A stretch of 64,000 bases of DNA from a virus (lineage: Duplodnaviria > Heunggongvirae > Uroviricota > Caudoviricetes). The stretch is taken from the IMG/VR virus record IMGVR_UViG_2563366947_000002; one strand, written 5' to 3'. A program made the translations under genes and the position numbers. Below are positions 1,558 to 50,360 of this stretch, piece by piece. Numbering within the stretch: the first letter of the stretch is position 1; every line of letters starts with the position of its first letter. The notes beneath the pieces were generated by a model. The model made no database searches, was not told the origin of the DNA, and worked only from the letters and a program-made list of their open reading frames with translations.

Positions 1558-2325
1558 TCACCCCATAGATATCGAGGTTTCGGTAATAATACGTTTTGCG
1601 TCCAACTCCCATGCTGTGATCACGTCTGCAATCACACTTATCGGCGCTTGTGTGGCATAAATACGCTCTTCTCCAATTGGTGCTGAAACATCCGTAAAGC
1701 CGACTTCTTTGGCATCCTGTATCGAGCAAATCAGCGGGACCGGGACACGAACAAGGTGAGTGGTTGCTTCAAATTGTGTACCTGTCATCAGGCGAAGCCG
1801 TGCGCCCAGCGAATTACACATCAGACTCATGGTCGCTTTATCAGTTGCCATTAACGTAACGTCATACGTCAGAATGGCCTGGGTGTATTCCAGTTCTGCT
1901 AAAGGCATTCCGGTATCCGGTTCGCAAAAACTGGCTACTTTTTTGCGGTCAATCTGCTGATCATCGTTGATATAATTGATATCCATAGTGCGTGAGATAT
2001 TGACCAGGGGGAGAGCATCCCGGTTAATGTTCTGGTTTTCAGGTTTTCTCCCTTGCCCGGCATTTGCGCGACGAACTGCTTTAAGAAACTCGATCGCATT
2101 GTCGAAACGGGCCACATAGACACGCTCTGCTGGTGGACGATTCAGGAATGACGCAAAGCGTTTTTCTTCCGGCGCGGGGGCCACAAGTAAGATATCAGAA
2201 AAAATGTTGCTGATTAGCGTCGCAAACGCGTTATCCACGTTTTCAAAGCCCGTGGTCTGGAATTTTCCTGTGCGTGAGGTTTGCCATTCACCTGTTCGCG
2301 CCAGGAGGGTTTTATTTGAAGTCAT
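1558..2325 (-). CDS. hypothetical phage tail/baseplate protein
   Basis: 255-aa ORF, same operon, 4-bp spacing/overlap with neighbours. Confidence 0.4.
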   Translation of the reverse strand: MTSNKTLLARTGEWQTSRTGKFQTTGFENVDNAFATLISNIFSDILLVAPAPEEKRFASFLNRPPAERVYVARFDNAIEFLKAVRRANAGQGRKPENQNINRDALPLVNISRTMDINYINDDQQIDRKKVASFCEPDTGMPLAELEYTQAILTYDVTLMATDKATMSLMCNSLGARLRLMTGTQFEATTHLVRVPVPLICSIQDAKEVGFTDVSAPIGEERIYATQAPISVIADVITAWELDAKRIITETSISMG

Positions 2326-3125
2326 TCGATCACTCCGTTTTGAGTCGTATCAAAATTCCTGGCAGGTATGCAGTAGTAAAGCGAACCAACATGCTGTGTG
2401 CCGTAGCTAAAAATACGGTGCACGTACCACCAGCGGCGCGCTACGCCGTTTACCATCTCTTCATTCCATTCAAGAATTGAGCCGACGGGGACGTTATTTG
2501 CTGCAATACGCAGAATCAGAACATCATCGGTTAAGCCATCCTGCTCACCGTCTGCGTCAATCGCATGGAAAGAGTCACGCCCGTCAGGGTTATCCAGCAC
2601 ATAAACGATTTCAGGTTCCTGGTAAGTCAGTTCGCGTTGGTTGTTATCCAGTTCAGTGAATGACTCTTCTCCTGTTTCGTCGCTGACTACCCCATATGTG
2701 CCAACATCTGGTCGATATAAGAGAGCCTGAAACGCGTCTGGGCTGGATTCAATAATCAGCATCCAGTCTGCGCGGATTTGGTCGTTAAAGGCTTTATGCC
2801 CGTTATAGCGTGCTTTTAGCTGTGGAGTTGATTCTCTGCCAGCCAGGGAAGGTGGAAGTATGGCTATATCTGATTCGCCAGCATCCGGAGTAAGGCCACC
2901 GTTGCTATCAGCAAAATTATCATGGCTATCAGCTTTGGCGGCGGGTTGCTCTTCCAGAATGCTGAATGAATCCGAACCGGTATTGCCATGTTCCGGCGCG
3001 CCTCCTGCATTCACTTCAATCGGCGCTGGCGTTTCTCTCTGCGTGCTGTCATGTTCTGACTCCTTACTTGCCAGGTTTGCATCGTCAGCAAACCATTCGT
3101 CAAAACGGCCCATAAGCATCCTCAA
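2322..3125 (-). CDS. hypothetical phage structural protein with acidic N-terminal region
   Basis: 267-aa ORF, first gene of minus-strand operon, overlaps next gene by 4 bp. Confidence 0.4.
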   Translation of the reverse strand: MRMLMGRFDEWFADDANLASKESEHDSTQRETPAPIEVNAGGAPEHGNTGSDSFSILEEQPAAKADSHDNFADSNGGLTPDAGESDIAILPPSLAGRESTPQLKARYNGHKAFNDQIRADWMLIIESSPDAFQALLYRPDVGTYGVVSDETGEESFTELDNNQRELTYQEPEIVYVLDNPDGRDSFHAIDADGEQDGLTDDVLILRIAANNVPVGSILEWNEEMVNGVARRWWYVHRIFSYGTQHVGSLYYCIPARNFDTTQNGVIE

Positions 3126-12953: not shown

Positions 12954-13133
12954 ATTGGCAGCCTCCTTTTGCTAATTTAAGGAGCTACCGCGTGAGGTTC
13001 CAATCTCAATGGCGGTAGCACTGACTGGGTTGGAACTACCGGCGCAAAAGGGAACCGGCCTGCCTTTCGGCAGCCCAGCCAGCACTACCATTGATCTCTG
13101 AGCTAAACGCTACGTATGGCTGTGCGATGGCAT

Positions 13134-13175
13134 GACACAAAAAAAGACGCTTTCGGCGTCTGTGTCGCCTTTTGC
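13134..13175. terminator. bidirectional intrinsic terminator in icd/ant leader
   Basis: GACGC-tttcg-GCGTC hairpin with A7 upstream and overlapping GGCG...CGCC hairpin with TTTT downstream. Confidence 0.55.
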
Positions 13176-13265
13176 ATTATCCGGGGTTCCAATCCCGGCA
13201 CCCGTTTTTCTAAGGTGCCGTAGAAATATACCCCACGATAATGCCAGGGCGCAACAGTCAGTATT

Positions 13266-23960: not shown

Positions 23961-24732
23961 CCACCTCTTCTGCCGCTGTATCATTGGACTGTTCTTCTTT
24001 GGCCCGTTCTGCAATCGCCGCACGGCATTTCGCCCTGGCTGTAGCGATTGCTTCTGCTCGCACATCGTCTGGAATCGTTGACGTGATATACATATCCAGT
24101 TCTTCGGCACGGAATACTGTTTGGTCCAGATATTCGCGTAGCATCCAGGTAAATTCGAAATCACACGCGATAATCTCTGCGCCACATTCTGCACCATTTG
24201 GGAAATGAATAAATGCCTGTTTAGCCAAACCGATAACACGACATGCGGTTGCCAAAACAGCGACAACCAGGTTTACATTTTCACACGCTACGGGCTGATT
24301 AACGCCGGAGATTACTCCATTTAACTGTCGGTTATATGGAAGGTAGTTTGAGATGCGTTCTACGCGCCATGTGCCAGTCAGGCTGCCATTCTTAAAGATA
24401 ATTGGTGTAACGGATAGCCCAAGCTCGCGTATAAGTCGTTGCGCTATAGCAGGATCATTAAACATGTCTAATGCTACACATTCGAAAGACTGTGCAAGGG
24501 TAAACAGTTCTTCCAGAGAGTAGTCTTTGCCCCTGGCGGTGATGTAACGATGAACGCCGCTTTCTGCATCGCTCCATATAGCTACGCCATGCTCTTCATT
24601 CAGTTCTTCATTAAAGCCGAGATATGTCATGATAGTGCGTTCAATCGTGTCAAACGGCAGTGACATGTCGGCGTTAACAGCCACCAGCAGGCCATTACGC
24701 AAGCGGTATTGAATTGCTTTAGTATTTTCCAC
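23956..24732 (-). CDS. hypothetical protein
   Basis: 258-aa ORF. Confidence 0.4.
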   Translation of the reverse strand: MENTKAIQYRLRNGLLVAVNADMSLPFDTIERTIMTYLGFNEELNEEHGVAIWSDAESGVHRYITARGKDYSLEELFTLAQSFECVALDMFNDPAIAQRLIRELGLSVTPIIFKNGSLTGTWRVERISNYLPYNRQLNGVISGVNQPVACENVNLVVAVLATACRVIGLAKQAFIHFPNGAECGAEIIACDFEFTWMLREYLDQTVFRAEELDMYITSTIPDDVRAEAIATARAKCRAAIAERAKEEQSNDTAAEEVE

Positions 24733-33401: not shown

Positions 33402-33855
33402 AACGTCTCCTTTTTTACACGCGCGACTATCCCCCGGAAGTGCCGGTAGTGATGTCGTAACTTCGTATTAATTAAGGGGTACAGCCTGAGCGGCTATATG
33501 ATGAATTGAAAGGAGTTGTGGCGGTGGTGCCTCCACCTGCCAGGTTAGCCACTCCTGGCGACGTCACTTATCAGAACGTAGTGAATGAAAATGGCTTCGT
33601 CACGAGCGCATAGCCGCAATTACCACAACGGAAACGGCGCTCACGCTAATTAAACGCCTTTTCCTGTTGTGCGCCGTGCTCTTCCGGCTGTCACACCGAA
33701 TCGCCAGGATGGTGAATCCTCGGTCCGACGATATGAACGGGGCTTGCACATTCCGGCTACCTGGTTTGTTGCCTGAGCTAGGGGAAAAGGTAACCCCTTT
33801 AACGTCACCAGACCGCTAACGACGCATGTGCCAGACGCCGTGTTACAACCAAATA

Positions 33856-33931
33856 TGGTGGCCCCTACCGGACTTGAACCGGTGACCGTGCGATTATGAG
33901 TCGCCAGCTCTAACCACTGAGCTAAGGGGCC
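33856..33931 (-). tRNA. tRNA with CAU anticodon (Ile2/lysidine-type or Met)
   Basis: 76 nt with encoded CCA; 5' GGCCCCTTAGCTCAGTGGTTAGAGC and anticodon loop CTCATAA closely resemble E. coli ileX. Confidence 0.85.
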
Positions 33932-34649: not shown

Positions 34650-34916
34650 TGGTTATCCCTCAATAAACATGACGTATTTATTAGGTTGCGGTGCCTGGTG
34701 CCTCCAGGTGACGTTAACCAGTTAACAATTAACGCCGGGATTTTTGACTTAACCACTAAGGAGGATTGTTTTAACTGTTCCGCGTGCGCTTAGCCGCATT
34801 CACCGCAATGGTAAGAGCACTTGGCTGGCTGGGCGGCGATGACGCCTGTACGCATTTGGTGATCCGGTTCTGCTTCCGGCATTCGCTTAATTAGCCAAAT
34901 ACTCTTAACGTTGCGC

Positions 34917-35003
34917 TGGCGGAGAGTAATGGAATCGAACCATCATCGCTTGCGCAATGGGACGGTTTTCAAGACCGCTTGAGCACCATGCGCCCTACTC
35001 TCC
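34917..35003 (-). tRNA. class II tRNA, anticodon UGA (Ser-type)
   Basis: 87 nt; 7-bp acceptor GGAGAGT/ACTCTCC, anticodon loop CTTGAAA, long variable arm with GCAA loop, T-loop TTCGATT, encoded CCA; D-arm weak. Confidence 0.6.
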
Positions 35004-35386
35004 GGCCGTTGTGGTGGCCGGTACTGAATCTCCGGCATACGGTGCAGCCAATTAGGACTACGGACGATCACCGCTCGCGAAAGGGAAGATTTGCGGCCGC
35101 ATTTCCCTAACATCCAAGAAAGCTATCGCATCAGCCTGCGAATCCACCACAACGTTGAGAACACTGGTTGTCACGCTGCAACGCAACATTTATTCGTAGA
35201 TTGGGATATGACCCCGTTACGCCAGTGTTCTCAACGTTGTAGTGCCGGTTACGGTTCCGGCCAGGCCTCTTCCTCAACGGGGTGTTCTCCGTACGGACTA
35301 CCGTTTATTGGTCGTTCCTGCGGTTTATGTTGTGAAGCCAGATGCTTATCTTCTGGTTGCTTCAAAGAGCTGCACTTCATCACAAC

Positions 35387-35460
35387 GGTAAGGGTACTTC
35401 GTAGGGATTCGAACCCTCTGCCAAGCTCGGCGATCTCCGACGTCGCAAAATACCCTTACC
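35387..35460 (-). ncRNA. aberrant tRNA-like element
   Basis: 74 nt with 10-bp terminal stem GGTAAGGGTA/TACCCTTACC and canonical T-arm AGGG-TTCGAAT-CCCT but no D/anticodon arrangement I could fold. Confidence 0.25.
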
Positions 35461-35468
35461 TGTTGTGC

Positions 35469-35544
35469 TGGTGCCGATTAACGGACTCGAACCGCTGACA
35501 TCCTGCTTACAAGGCAGGCGCTCTACCAACTGAGCTAAACCGGC
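35469..35544 (-). tRNA. tRNA-Thr (anticodon UGU)
   Basis: 76 nt; GCCGGTTTAGCTCAGTTGGTAGAGC..., anticodon loop CTTGTAA, T-loop TTCGAGT, encoded CCA. Confidence 0.85.
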
Positions 35545-35546
35545 AT

Positions 35547-35622
35547 TGGCGATGATGGATGGATTTGAACCATCGACCCGTTGATTAACAGTCAACCGCT
35601 CTAACCGCTGAGCTACACCATC
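35547..35622 (-). tRNA. tRNA-Asn (anticodon GUU)
   Basis: 76 nt; anticodon stem GTTGA/TCAAC, loop CTGTTAA, T-arm GATGG-TTCAAAT-CCATC, encoded CCA. Confidence 0.85.
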
Positions 35623-36838
35623 ACTTGCCGGGTACGTCTCCGGCGAGGGCTTCCACCTCCGTATGCTTTTCGGCGCACCGCGCCCTGGCTGCAATTCGGT
35701 AACAGGGGATGCACAACCCTGGCTTCCAGCGTGATTAGCGCCTTCAGCATGACGGGATATACCCGTTACAAGAAATTCCCCCAGGATGCCATTAAGCAAT
35801 GGCTGTTACGCGGGAGGGACGTAACAGGTAAGGGCGCTGACCAGAAAGACCTGACCCTTCTCATTCATCTGGTTAATCACACCAGCGCCCTTGCCTGTTA
35901 TGCCTCCCCGTTCCCTAATACACAGACGGGGACACTCTGCGGTCGATTTTTTGACGGGGGACGACTCATACCCCGTGGCGTCTGGCTTCTTAGGCCGCTA
36001 CCATCATCAGATCATCGTTTGCATTTACTTTAATGGTCGGTTTCTAAACCGCCGCAAAGTCGCTAACCATGACGAAAACCCTAAAAAAGCCCACCCGAAG
36101 ATGGGCAAATACGCTACATCTCACACAAGAAAGAAGCCGACTGCCTGAGTTGGATTCACTTTCAAATGCCCGCTGAAAGGGATCACAAGTCGGCTTCTTT
36201 CTTGATGCGGCACTCTCTCCGCCCGTCACCGCTCTGTCTCGGTTGTCGCGTTTGCCACGCCAGCCATAACGAGGTTTAAAGTCTTTTCACGTTCCCATCA
36301 CTCGACTGCCGTCTGTGGCTGTTCGTTGCAGCGGGGGTGCCTCCCCCTGGGGATATCCCCGGCCTTACCCCATTCTTTCAAGACACAATGCAAGGCCACA
36401 TCCGCATAGGTGCATTACTGCAACATTAAGGAGACTCAGGGCAAAAGGTAACCGCCACAAAAATCCCTATGCCTCCTTAATGTTGAAGATGTGCATTGAT
36501 GATTAGATGCAGCATGTACCGTTACTCTCTGCCGGACCATCATCAATGAACACCTTAAAAAGACCTTCCGTGGCTCAACATGTATTGTCGTTTACTCCGC
36601 AAAGTGCTCTCTCTGAAACCACTTTCCGCACTAAACCTGCTGAACTTTTGCCTGCACAGTGCCAAAGCGTGCTCTTGCGTTACTATACTTTTCTAACGCT
36701 TTAATTTGTTAAATGCTGGTGGGCGAACAATAACCAATAAGTGACTATCAAGCCCAGCAAGCGAAACGTGGGTACCGCCCACCAGCAAGGAAAATTCTAT
36801 GTTAAGTTACCTTCACAATCAACACATTCGAATTGTGA

Positions 36839-43000: not shown

Positions 43001-46000
43001 GTCTTCCTCGGCCTCATCAACATCATCTGCCACTTTACCGCCAGCTACTTTTGGCAAGGCATCAGCAATAGCTTTTACCTGGTCTGCAAGCTCAACGGGG
43101 AACTGGAATGTAATCGCACTGGCATACAGATCCGGGTCTATAGCAACCTTATCCATGTCACGGATGATGGAGAAGATGAAATCATCCGGTTTGTCGTTAG
43201 TGATATGCCCGTTTTCATCGACTGTCAGCTCATCATTGCGACTTAACTCCTGAGCACGCTTACGAAGCTCTTCATAAGCAGTCTCCTGCTCCCCTGTCAT
43301 CGGGATCTGCAAGGTGTTCTCGATGATGTCGGGAATTTTAACCGTCGCTCCGACATCTGCAGCAGTCTTCAGAGTGGCCCAACGATGGAAAATACCACGC
43401 AGGCCGTCAAGGTTCTGGAAGCCCACCAGCCCCTGCTTCTCTTCCACTTCCCCGGAAATTTTCTGGACCTGAACTGTGGCTGTTTTGCCAAACACACGAA
43501 CGAAATCATCAGGCGTAATGATGCCCATACGCATCCACTCTTCCTGCGGAATGACAGTAGACAGCATGTTGAAGGCATCAATCGGACTGTTCACCAGCGG
43601 TGTTGCCGTCAGCATGACTACACCACGCCCGTTGTTGCGTTTCATCATGTACGCAGCTTTTACAGCCATGTCGCGGGCCATCTTGGATACTGCCGGGTTA
43701 GGCAAATATGCCAGTTGTCCCGCTTCACGCCCGGCATTAAAGGAGTTGCGGTAGTTATGCCCCTCGTCGGCAATCACGCTATCGAAGTTCATATCCTCAA
43801 AGTACGGGATATTTTGCTTCTTCGTTGTACCGGTATTCGCGGCCTGATCCTTAATCTTGTTCTTCTTCTGCGCATCACGGTGTTTACCGGACGCCAGGTC
43901 AAGACGCCCCATTTCCACAGCATTAAAGACAGCTTGCTGTGAGTTCTCCTCGATGGTTTTTTCTCGTAGCGGGATAGACGCGAATTGTTCTTTTGTCATG
44001 ATGACCGTTCGCCAATTTGACGACGGGATCATGTTCATACGCTGAACGATAACGGCGCTGGAGGACTCTTTCACAACATTTCTGGTAAGAGGCTGCCCGT
44101 TACTGTCGAGGCGTGGTTCGCCATTTTCATCAAGCACCGGCGCGGTCAGAATATTTCCGCTGTCATCACGAACTTCATCCAAACCGATAAACATCATATT
44201 GGCGAAGGCGTCAGCACTGTAGAAACTCTGTGCCTCGTGATACCAGTTCTGATAAACCGCCTTCGGAACAACAATACACGTGCGTTTAGTGCGACCTGTT
44301 TCGAAGTTATACGCCTCAAGCGCAAGCGCGGTCGTGGTTTTACCCAGCCCGGTACCAAATCCCATGATGCCGCGCCCATCTTCTGACAAGCGCCGAACTT
44401 CTTCATTCTGATAAGTAAGAGGAATGCGCTTTCCACTAAGCCCTTCCAGGCCAAGCGGTGCGTCAGAATGCGTGAACGGAATGAAACCATTGAATGCGTC
44501 GTTATACTCGCGGGCTATCTGATCAGCCTGCGGGTGAGTGCGTAACCAGTCGTTAAAACTAACTTCCAGTTGAGCAATTTTATCCAGGTACTCGTTAGCG
44601 TTCTGCCCACGCGGTTTAACACCGTTCAGGTAGTTTTCTAACTGGTTCAGGAAGCCGTCTTTATTGTTGGCCTTCTTGAACTCATTCCCGTTTTTGCCGT
44701 TTACGGTTCGTAGCTGATAGCCGGTAAATACCCCGTCCTTACCTTCGTAATCGTCCGGAGATACCAGAATGCCATCGACGACCTTCAGATCAGGTTCAGT
44801 GTACTTAAACTCGTCATAGCCCTGCTCTGCCAGGAACTCTTTTATCAAGCGGCGATCCAGCCAGCGGGCATTCAGATTAACGGTGACTTTATTTAGTGGC
44901 GTGAAAATACGTTTCTCTTCGATTTTCGCCAACTGACGCTCAAAGTTCGCTTTCTGCTCACCTGTTGACGCATCACGCCAGCCCATCAGCAATGCTGTTT
45001 TGGTTGCAATATCGCCGCTGGTGGCGCGGTCCATCGGCAGCAGGCAGCCATACCCATCAATAGCGATATCATCAAATTTCGCCAGGAATTCAAGGGCCGC
45101 GTCGTCGTCCTCTGGCAGTTCACCAGCAAACGCCTCACGAAAGTCTCCCAGCGTTATAGGATTAAGGGCTACATCACTGAAAAGATGTGCTATCACTTGT
45201 TCAGGACGGGTAAAGTCAATACCGGCAGCACCATCCGTTACATCAAGTCGCCCTGCCAGAAGGTCAGAAGTGGAACCATCCTGTTTCACATTGCCAGTGA
45301 ACGTCATCCAGTTTTTAGCGCCAGCTTCAGCAAGCCCATTCAGCTTAATCGCGTGCGGTGGTCCATACTTCGCAACTTCTGCTGCCGCCAGGCGGGATGC
45401 ATCTGCCAGTTTGTCATCAACGTTCGCCCCCAGGTTACGCAAATCAAGTGCCTTGTTGATCAACTGCCCTATCAGCGCACCGCGCATAACGCGCTCTCTG
45501 TCTTTTTCTCGCTGCTTGTCAGCAAAGCGAATCATTGCTGCCACTTCATCACTGACAACCGATGGATAGTCGGACGCGATCGCCGATATCTGGTCCCATG
45601 ACAAAGCCAGAATCCCGTTTGTTGACTGGAACGCGATCTGCAGATCGCCAAACGTCGAAACACCATATCGACTTACATCAAGCGCGGAGGATTTGGTTGT
45701 CGTGTCCTTAACCCATTTCAGACCATCAAACTCATGCCAGATACCGCCTACAAGGCGTTTATCGCCCACTTTCGCGCCCTGCCATGCCTGAGTAGTTACG
45801 CCGAGCAAATCCCAATTGATGCGACTATCAAAGCGACGAGATAGCGCGGTTTTCATCGACTCATTGGATACACGACCGTCTTTTTTCACTACCAGGGTAT
45901 TGCGGAAGCTGGTGCGTTCCATGTCGCCGTAAACAAATCGCTTCCCTTCGGTTGTAAACCATTTCCCTTTGAGGAAGGTATCCCAAAGGACGTTTGCCGA

Positions 46001-50015: not shown

Positions 50016-50360
50016 TAGTTACGGCCTCATTCGTAGGTTTAACAACCTGCGCCCCCGCTGCTAAACGGGTGGCAGGACGTGACGGGGTTAGCAGACTGGC
50101 ACGAATGAAACCAGCAGGCCGAAGCCTCCCCATCACGCCCCACCATAATTCGGGCGTAACGTGGTGTTACGGACACAAAAATACCGCAATATCGGATATC
50201 TGCGGTTGTCCGCATTCGTATTCAGGCTGCTAAACCCGGTCGCAGAATTTGCTACGACGGCATGAATATAAGCCTGAAAACATGGAAGATCAACTAAAAA
50301 TTTCAGCAATGGATGACTTCAGTCGATGATGCAGATCATACATTCCGATTTAGAAACAGC

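Follow-up and report, generated by a model that had tools for sequence, protein, structure and literature searches.

In the 64,000-nucleotide (nt) stretch of the Caudoviricetes record IMGVR_UViG_2563366947_000002 analyzed here (hereafter the window), an element at 35387-35460 in a cluster of transfer RNA (tRNA) genes is a structured non-coding RNA module and not a tRNA gene. It consists of a long helix, which we call the frame, closed around a tRNA-like insert, the payload, and it is close to certain that the element belongs to a family in which the frame is a portable unit with exchangeable payloads. Covariation, constant co-orientation with tRNAs and strand-asymmetric folding indicate that this family functions at the RNA level. 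The window is Escherichia phage D6, a relative of P1; the region matches NC_050154 at 99.9%, and most of it matches P1 at 98-99% and P7 at 95%.

An earlier sequence-only reading of the element had reported a 10-base-pair (bp) stem (GGTAAGGGTA/TACCCTTACC, at 35451-35460 and 35387-35396), a T-arm of AGGG-TTCGAAT-CCCT (35403-35417, read on the minus strand) and an 8-nt gap between the element (35387-35460) and tRNA-Thr (35469-35544, minus strand), and all three were found as it had described them. The stem is, however, longer than 10 bp, extending to 15 bp and then, past a bulged A, to 6 bp more, and the complete hairpin begins 1 nt past the CCA end of tRNA-Thr. The statement that neither a D arm nor an anticodon arm could be placed holds for the anticodon arm, which does not exist, but not for the D arm, as comparison of homologues revealed a D-arm-like hairpin at 35430-35446. 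The sense strand of the element is minus, as it is for all four tRNAs of the region. Its parts, with payload types lettered and the P1/D6 payload designated type A, are as follows:

35381-35467, minus strand: complete hairpin module of about 87 nt, made up of outer helix, frame helix and tRNA-like payload (fold and covariance model).
35462-35467, minus strand: 5' strand of the outer helix, CACAAC, pairing with GUUGUG at 35381-35386; the columns are invariant or nearly so in the family.
35461, minus strand: bulged A between the outer helix and the frame helix.
35446-35460, minus strand: 5' strand of the frame helix, GGUAAGGGUAUUUUG, pairing with 35387-35401 (fold and covariation).
35430-35446, minus strand: D-arm-like hairpin GCGA-CGUCGGAGA-UCGC, with a 4-bp stem and a 9-nt loop containing GG (comparison with type C; RNAalifold).
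35418-35429, minus strand: 12-nt linker CGAGCUUGGCAG where a tRNA would have its anticodon arm and variable loop; no other part differs as much among type A copies.
35403-35417, minus strand: T-arm AGGG-UUCGAAU-CCCU, invariant in type A (sequence and fold).
35387-35401, minus strand: 3' strand of the frame helix, CGAAGUACCCUUACC (fold and homologue alignment).
35381-35386, minus strand: 3' strand of the outer helix, GUUGUG (fold and homologue alignment).

A single unpaired A (35402) separates the T-arm from the 3' strand of the frame helix. It is close to certain that the helix of about 21 bp (6 + 15 bp) closes a three-way junction holding the D-like hairpin, the 12-nt linker and the T-arm. 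The payload appears to be a mimic of the top half, or elbow, of a tRNA, with the T-arm set beside the 3' strand of the frame as it would be beside an acceptor stem.

Both folding and comparative analysis support this structure, which exceeds what chance would produce. The complete hairpin folds on the minus strand at -42.7 kcal/mol (z = -5.8, with none of 200 shuffles equal), and the 74-nt core folds on the plus strand at -25.8 kcal/mol (z = -3.0); the family covariance model, which represents type A copies, scored 35381-35466 at 108.8 bits in the minus orientation, against 25.7 bits in the plus orientation. The single-sequence fold of D6 preferred a UCGG/CCGA hairpin, but because this hairpin is disrupted in phage BUCT554 and in the loci L142 and L198, the comparative structure is the better of the two. 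When 17 sequences were aligned with MAFFT, which matched up the D-like hairpins of types A and C, 95.6% of cells were paired, compared to 36-62% with the partner slid by 1-3 columns, and both sides changed in six pairs, two of them among the four pairs of the D-like stem. In the long helix (outer plus frame, 19 pairs), 4 of the 19 pairs change on both sides and 95% of cells are paired; the outer helix shows C-G to U-G changes in 4 of the 17 sequences, and the innermost pair occurs as five standard types (U-G, A-U, C-G, G-C and U-A). The type C sequence GCAU-AUCUGGGAA-AUGC lies at the aligned position of the D-like stem, with G-C replaced by A-U and A-U by U-A, and RNAalifold predicted the D-like hairpin independently. 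T-stems also differ among payload types, being AGGG/CCCU in type A and GCGG/CCGC, AAGG/CCUU, UGGG/CCCA or AUGG/CCAU in the others, with a UUCRANY loop, and the two stem positions that our T-arm scan pattern had left free were complementary in five of five types (A-U/G-C, G-C/C-G, A-U/A-U, U-A/G-C and A-U/U-A).

The sequence-only reading had allowed that a standard tRNA model might fit the element once exact boundaries were computed; neither relaxed Rfam searches nor ARAGORN gave such a fit. The Rfam tRNA model RF00005 (gathering threshold 29 bits) had no match on 35381-35467 at E ≤ 10, and ARAGORN found nothing on the element at default, relaxed (-ps), mitochondrial or tmRNA settings; a 95-nt "tRNA-Tyr" called with -ps80 is an artefact that takes its T-arm from tRNA-Thr. 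Relaxed Rfam matches on the element were confined to mascRNA (14.9 bits) and ALIL (12.4 bits), both noise. Compared part by part with a tRNA, the element has a 7-nt UUCRANY T-loop and a 4-bp hairpin at the D-arm position, with the loop CGUCGGAGA and two compensatory pairs, and the U8/N9 spacer is absent. The anticodon arm is missing, with the 12-nt linker standing between the D-like hairpin and the T-arm, and there is no acceptor stem of the usual kind, as the helix runs for 21 bp and, seven pairs in, its 3' strand has the sequence CCCU in D6 and CUCU in most relatives. Of the identities that the sequence-only reading had offered (degenerate tRNA, tRNA-like processing signal, unusual small RNA), the tRNA-like character stands, given the T-arm, the D-like hairpin and the long acceptor-like helix, while a plain decayed tRNA is unlikely in view of the conservation and compensatory changes that are weighed below.

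Other known RNAs fared no better. At relaxed E-values, no Rfam family matched any module in the D6 region or in 22 related loci, including lambda, P7 and BUCT554, and at gathering thresholds matches in the whole window were limited to tRNAs, two C4 RNAs, isrK and c4-a1b1. YrlA and Y RNA were rejected, as the order of arms differs and the sole weak match (24.4 bits against a gathering score of 69) covers tRNA-Asn and tRNA-Thr; tmRNA was negative on the element in ARAGORN and had no match from an Rfam tmRNA family. The module is also distinct from the prophage small RNAs (sRNAs) described in the vicinity of Q and S, namely StxS, AgvB/AsxR, Pas and STnc100. A literature search for the frame sequences returned nothing relevant and no paper describing the module, and the P1 transcriptome papers do not mention the region. 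A boxA-like reading of UGCUCUUU in the 3' part of the frame was set aside, as only CUUNCC is kept when the frame covaries. The frame start CACAACA (35461-35467, minus strand) is nearly invariant and coincides with the published consensus target of the GcvB R1 seed, which is used by the prophage anti-sRNA AgvB, and the frame end GUUGUG resembles the GcvB seed; we did not adopt the idea of a GcvB sponge, a speculative link in which CACAACA would have to act while buried in a helix with GUUGUG. A templated or spacer-like origin was also rejected, the payloads of four modules in the window having no 11-mer matches within the 64 kb beyond chance.

Comparison with the tRNA clusters of related phages, which the sequence-only reading had proposed, proved informative: the bounding stem is a frame common to lambda, P7, P22-like and epsilon15-like phages. 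The frame helix has the consensus ends (C)AYAAC-A-GGUAAG on the 5' side and CUUNCC-GUUGUG on the 3' side, which pair across a variable insert and are both present in the element. A scan with the helix-end pattern AACAGGTAAG N30-60 CCGTTGTG matched at least 120 viral contigs, in which the inserts were mutually dissimilar throughout. Pooled loci yielded 313 modules of 63-107 nt at 234 loci, comprising 114 unique sequences and 48 payload clusters drawn at 70% identity, and over these 48 clusters the frame ends ACAGGUAAG and CUUNCC-GUUGUG are 92-100% conserved, except for the variable N (73%). The phages that carry the frame are P1-like, lambda-like and P22/epsilon15-like phages of Enterobacterales. 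All copies have the bulged A and most have a U.U apposition, and where the frame helix is not invariant it covaries (for example, GAGCA/UGCUC, CUGCU/GGCAGC, GAUCA/UGAUC, GAAAGU/AGCUUUC). Among modules with a tRNA within 1.5 kb, 171 lie on the same strand as the tRNA and 0 are opposed, and in 26 of 31 payload clusters the sense strand folds more stably than the antisense strand (Wilcoxon p = 1.4e-5).

The payloads are exchanged within this constant frame. P7 and Ro157c2YLVW have flanks and frame as in P1/D6, but carry at the same position a different, shorter payload without a T-arm, and RCS47 has the P1/D6 and P7 versions in tandem. When a second scan demanded a T-loop within the frame, T-arms were found in 6 of at least 48 payloads. 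Variants of type A occur in BUCT554 and several prophage contigs; type C has the architecture of type A in another sequence (GCAU-AUCUGGGAA-AUGC, a 13-nt linker and GCGG-UUCGAUU-CCGC); types D and E have T-arms too; and type F, from locus L228, resembles the 3' half of a long-arm (type II) tRNA, with the end CUGACCC-G-CCA. In a species-dereplicated genome collection, where chance matches were the majority and were filtered by arm complementarity, genuine modules were present in Serratia, Klebsiella, Pectobacterium, Pantoea, Rahnella, Kluyvera, Chimaeribacter and Superficieibacter, with a new payload in each; a scan of the K-12 Qin prophage for a frame module found none. Modules occur directly after tRNA-Thr (69 cases), directly before tRNA-Arg or tRNA-Gly, after terminators, and in non-coding DNA upstream of terminase genes. 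Because of these varied settings, and because phage Sf6 has the tRNA pair alone, modules and tRNAs are independent accessory units of these leaders.

Two further structures were seen beside frame modules. In locus L139, a 47-nt look-alike of helix 11 of 16S ribosomal RNA (rRNA), AGCUAGAUGGUGGGGUAAUGGCUCACCAUGGCGACGA, occupies, at 1953-1999 (minus strand), a variable slot next to a type C module; a small-subunit rRNA model gives it 36.7 bits, and compensatory changes with respect to E. coli 16S preserve its helix. Locus L056 has at 2233-2365 (minus strand) a 133-nt tRNA-Thr-like gene with intact acceptor, D and T arms but with an insert of about 74 nt where the anticodon arm would be; the gene resembles a natural "tRNA scaffold" and is followed directly by a type B frame module.

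In lambda, the frame module lies at about 44,790-44,863, directly behind tR', with the frame CACAACAGGTAAG...CTTTCCGTTGTG and the payload AGTCGATAATCGTGAAGAGTCGGCGAGCCTGGTTAGC, and no other helix in the late leader from pR' to S reaches 20 bp. Lambda-identical copies of the late-leader module were also seen in five assemblies (L250, L254, L294, L304 and L307) that are assigned to Pseudomonas, Chromatiales, Psychrobacter, Algoriphagus or Pseudomonadales or are metagenome-derived, some on very short contigs of 415-1,151 bp; these are most likely lambda DNA contamination.

The D6 element shares its surroundings with four tRNA genes, all of which ARAGORN placed on the minus strand:

35547-35622, minus strand: tRNA-Asn(GUU), upstream of tRNA-Thr; genuine (ARAGORN and Rfam tRNA model).
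35469-35544, minus strand: tRNA-Thr(UGU), directly upstream of the element; genuine (ARAGORN; Rfam tRNA model, 72.9 bits).
34917-35003, minus strand: tRNA-Ser(UGA) (ARAGORN).
33856-33931, minus strand: tRNA-Met/Ile2(CAU) (ARAGORN).

In P1, the C1-controlled ban promoter and operator are followed by a dicF-like region that contains a terminator, next by tRNA-Asn, tRNA-Thr and the element, and then by tciABC, trnI and ban; there the leader belongs to the C1-repressed ban/tci operon. P7 has the same operon context, and its record states that the tRNA genes are controlled by the operator. The element is very probably co-transcribed with tRNA-Asn and tRNA-Thr in a long untranslated leader, transcription that we infer for D6.

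As to what the module does, we tentatively favor, at somewhat short of an even chance, a picture in which a stable tRNA-elbow mimic is excised by host RNase III. The enzyme would cut the two-turn frame helix, separating the upstream tRNAs from the downstream RNA and freeing the payload in the form of a compact hairpin some 60-85 nt long. The T-arm of the tRNA-elbow mimic would stack on the helix that remains, and the freed payload might be read by host T-arm or elbow factors, such as TruB, TrmA or RNase P-type elbow readers, which would either stabilize the RNA or make it a decoy. Cleavage of the frame by RNase III stands by itself at about even odds, and release of a stable product and a function for the payload are further steps that we infer.

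The typical E. coli RNase III substrate has about two helical turns, and host RNase III sites in rRNA operons and in T7 early RNA consist of a long helix in a polycistronic transcript. Substrates of the E. coli enzyme are near-continuous helices of at least 20 bp, and the module offers 6 + 15 bp interrupted by one bulged A and kept by covariation. The sequence-only reading had named RNase P and RNase E as candidate processing enzymes; the helix of about 21 bp makes RNase III more likely, and that reading had overlooked that the frame is shared with other phages. In lambda, work by Daniels and colleagues from 1988 reportedly found RNase III processing sites in late RNA in vivo, and the lambda late-leader hairpin is probably the site of that study.

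Several observations weigh against excision by RNase III of a stable elbow mimic. The case for cleavage comes from the length of the helix and the title of the 1988 lambda paper. RNase III has little sequence specificity, and therefore does not account for the near-invariance of GGUAAG and CUUNCC-GUUGUG beyond the needs of pairing, and the proposal also leaves the extreme diversity of payloads unaccounted for. The helix passes the point where an acceptor stem would end and there is no RCCA 3' end, which argues against classical tRNA-type handling of the intact hairpin. A strong intrinsic terminator (36089-36106, minus strand) lies upstream of the D6 element, and a search of the D6 window for a P1-type C1 operator found none. 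Finally, Sf6 has the same tRNA-Asn/Thr pair with no module behind it, and the module is thus dispensable for tRNA maturation.

Other explanations of the element would give it a different role or none. It could be a "t-element" for RNase P, which would read the elbow on the helix and cut the 5' strand about 12 bp from the T-loop, between the G and the U where GGUAAGGG meets UAUUUUG, thereby delimiting the 3' trailer of tRNA-Thr and giving the downstream RNA its 5' end. RNase P measures a 12-bp coaxial stack, and the 4-bp T-arm, a G.A apposition and 7 pairs of the frame helix make up a stack of that length; there is also precedent for non-tRNA phage substrates of the E. coli enzyme, among them the P1/P7 C4 RNA, phi80 M3 RNA and P4 CI RNA. 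We nonetheless consider this explanation unlikely, as the helix extends 14 bp past the putative +1 and so leaves no single-stranded 5' leader, and the 3' side reads CCCU in D6 or CUCU in most relatives and not RCCA. Moreover, the payload of P7 and Ro157c2YLVW has no T-arm in the same frame at the same place, and the action of the site there thus needs no tRNA mimicry. The position within a tRNA cluster, the likeness of the L228 payload to the 3' half of a type II tRNA and the aberrant tRNA-Ser that neighbors the element in D6 would all suit a decaying pseudogene, that is, a tRNA duplicate whose anticodon arm was lost and which no longer serves a function itself, but the conservation of the payload makes this improbable. 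Of 5,426 complete E. coli genomes, 464 contain the payload with at least 94% identity, nearly always on P1-like plasmids and at a site that carries no annotated feature, and all 473 E. coli records with the payload match at 90% identity or more (471 of them at 95% or more). In type A copies the D-like loop and the T-arm never change, whereas the linker does, and compensatory changes between types A and C keep the D-like and inner stems. A copy with 85% identity and compensatory stem changes occurs in BUCT554, an unrelated Enterobacter podovirus, and a comparison of the payload with the chromosomal tRNA genes of E. coli found no similar gene at E ≤ 10.

The nearly invariant frame ends around unrelated inserts would also be expected of a DNA-level device, in which the frame is a short homology "linker" or a hairpin recombination site for cassette exchange and the RNA fold is incidental. 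The break-points of the P1/P7 payload swap fall within GGTAAGGG and CTTACC, and in CUS-3 the region is flanked by annotated "boundary sequences", although these features do not cover the module itself. The AAC...GTT ends of the frame are faintly like the R''/R' boxes of integron attC sites. That candidate was rejected, as GCACAAC and GTTGTGA each depart from RYYYAAC and GTTRRRY, P1, D6 and lambda offer no integrase context, and the strand asymmetry favors RNA. The DNA-level explanation as a whole seems to us distinctly improbable: the orientation relative to tRNAs is 171 to 0, G.U pairs improve the sense-strand fold in a way that a symmetrical DNA site would not need, no recombinase is associated with the modules, and homologous exchange at a conserved RNA element is expected anyway and is compatible with RNA function. 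We give almost no credence to the remaining possibility, which follows from P1 annotation, that the plus strand encodes Plp, a "putative lipoprotein". There is an open reading frame (ORF) at 35091-35498 on the plus strand, where P1 annotates plp (L001 2703-3080), but it runs antisense through tRNA-Thr and the hairpin, has no Pfam match, and is not called in D6, P7 or RefSeq E. coli plasmid annotations. Its reading frame and C-terminus differ or are interrupted in P7, RCS47 and Ro157c2YLVW because payload length differs. The plp gene is probably an annotation artefact, a spurious ORF. In lambda, the doubtful orf-64 (L129 222-416) overlaps the frame hairpin and has no sign of conservation at the protein level, and plp and orf-64 are both probably artefacts that were copied to related records.

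The element is not alone in its leader. Its 1.6-kb untranslated leader is shared by three extra long-stem hairpins with inserts of 43-54 nt, and a miniature frame module lies further downstream:

36126-36204, minus strand: long-stem hairpin with a perfect 17-bp stem.
35813-35909, minus strand: frame-type module AACAGGCAAGGGCGCUG ... CAGCGCCCUUACCUGUU with a 43-nt payload, upstream of tRNA-Asn (inverted repeat; weak covariance-model match).
35145-35244, minus strand: second long-stem module, with the 23-bp stem ACAACGUUGAGAACACUGG.../...CCAGUGUUCUCAACGUUGU and a 54-nt payload (inverted repeat and 473-nt fold).
33624-33671, minus strand: miniature frame module CACAAC-A-GGAAA[short GC hairpin]UUUCC-GUUGUG, downstream of tRNA-Met(CAU) (covariance model, 31.5 bits).

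The module at 35813-35909, whose stem of 27 nt is 81% complementary, is homologous to "module 0" of P1, and the 473-nt stretch from tRNA-Thr to tRNA-Ser folds with z = -6.9.

Several other features of the D6 region deserve mention. The tRNA-Ser(UGA) called by ARAGORN is aberrant: it falls below the threshold of the Rfam tRNA model, its best Rfam match is tRNA-Sec at 43.1 bits (gathering score 47), and the D6 record leaves it unassigned by tRNAscan-SE. Its T-arm, GAUGG-UUCGAUU-CCAUU, is similar to that of payload type F in L228. After tRNA-Met(CAU), at 33690-33860 (minus strand), there is a conserved structured segment GGCACAUGCGUCG..UAGCGGUC..GGUAGCCGGAAUGUGCAAGCC with no Rfam match, which recurs in L003, L008, L037, L139, L157 and L195, P22- or epsilon15-like contigs in which it lies upstream of frame modules by terminase genes. 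Just upstream of tciA (34700-34832, minus strand; L004 1850-1965; L356 about 24440-24600) lies sequence homologous to the region between dicF and dicB in the K-12 Qin prophage; its match to the prophage sRNA family STnc100 falls slightly short of the gathering score of 47 (43 bits in P7). D6 also has two C4 antisense RNA genes, at 13008-13218 and 50065-50271 (both minus strand; 76.7 and 71.9 bits), one adjoining isrK and the other an a1/b1 target element, which suggests two immI-type immunity regions.

More broadly, it is conceivable, if rather doubtful, that the frame is the scaffold of an unrecognized cassette system in temperate enterobacterial phages, in which a host RNase excises fast-changing small structured RNAs from leaders to act as decoys or modulators of RNA-binding proteins of the host or of rivals. 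The repertoire of such a system might, on the same slender footing, include tRNA-elbow mimics, the 16S helix look-alike of L139 and the tRNA-Thr with a foreign insert for its anticodon arm in L056, and its targets could, equally speculatively, be tRNA- or rRNA-targeting toxins or defense nucleases. If this were true, the combination of variable payloads with a fixed frame would be due to diversifying selection. P1 and lambda are well studied, yet the stretch has been annotated merely as doubtful ORFs (plp, orf-64) or as nothing in thousands of genomes, and our result corrects a plp annotation that has spread to many P1-like plasmids. Should the frame be a general excision scaffold, untranslated tRNA-carrying leaders of 1-2 kb would become readable as small-RNA arrays, and the modules would amount to a new class of accessory phage genes, "RNA morons", offering natural tRNA-scaffold RNAs whose targets could be reached by simple pull-downs.

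A scaffolded, hypervariable small-RNA cassette system would be new, though we set the chance that this is one rather low. Among known RNAs, the frame has its closest relative in the lambda late-leader hairpin, a true homologue with the same frame sequence and the same placing in an untranslated leader, although the lambda payload is unrelated and has no T-arm. The RNase III stems of rRNA operons and T7 early RNA are alike in having a helix of about two turns with small irregularities and flanks that enclose structured RNA; the frame differs in enclosing just 35-80 nt that vary among phages, and its cleavage is a proposal. The phage non-tRNA substrates of RNase P (C4, M3 and CI RNAs) are likewise small structured RNAs cut from longer transcripts by a host tRNA-processing enzyme, but they are described as lacking a T-loop, whereas the element has a T-loop and has neither a free 5' leader nor an RCCA end. 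With canonical tRNA (RF00005) the element shares the UUCGAAU T-loop, a 4-bp hairpin with a GG loop at the D-arm position, and a T-arm directly before the 3' strand of the closing helix; it differs in its closing helix of about 21 bp and in having no anticodon arm, 7-bp acceptor stem or NCCA end. For the payload, the nearest known relatives are found in tmRNA and YrlA, whose tRNA-like domains have the same T/D elbow in a different topology. The tRNA-like domain of tmRNA combines a T-arm with a D-loop analogue and has no anticodon arm, as in the element, which does not have the tag reading frame, the pseudoknots or the aminoacylatable CCA end. YrlA (RF02553) joins a long stem to a module with tRNA-like T and D arms, but its long stem replaces the anticodon stem and its arms follow in the order T, acceptor hairpin, D, whereas in the element the long stem takes the acceptor position and the D-like hairpin precedes the T-arm.

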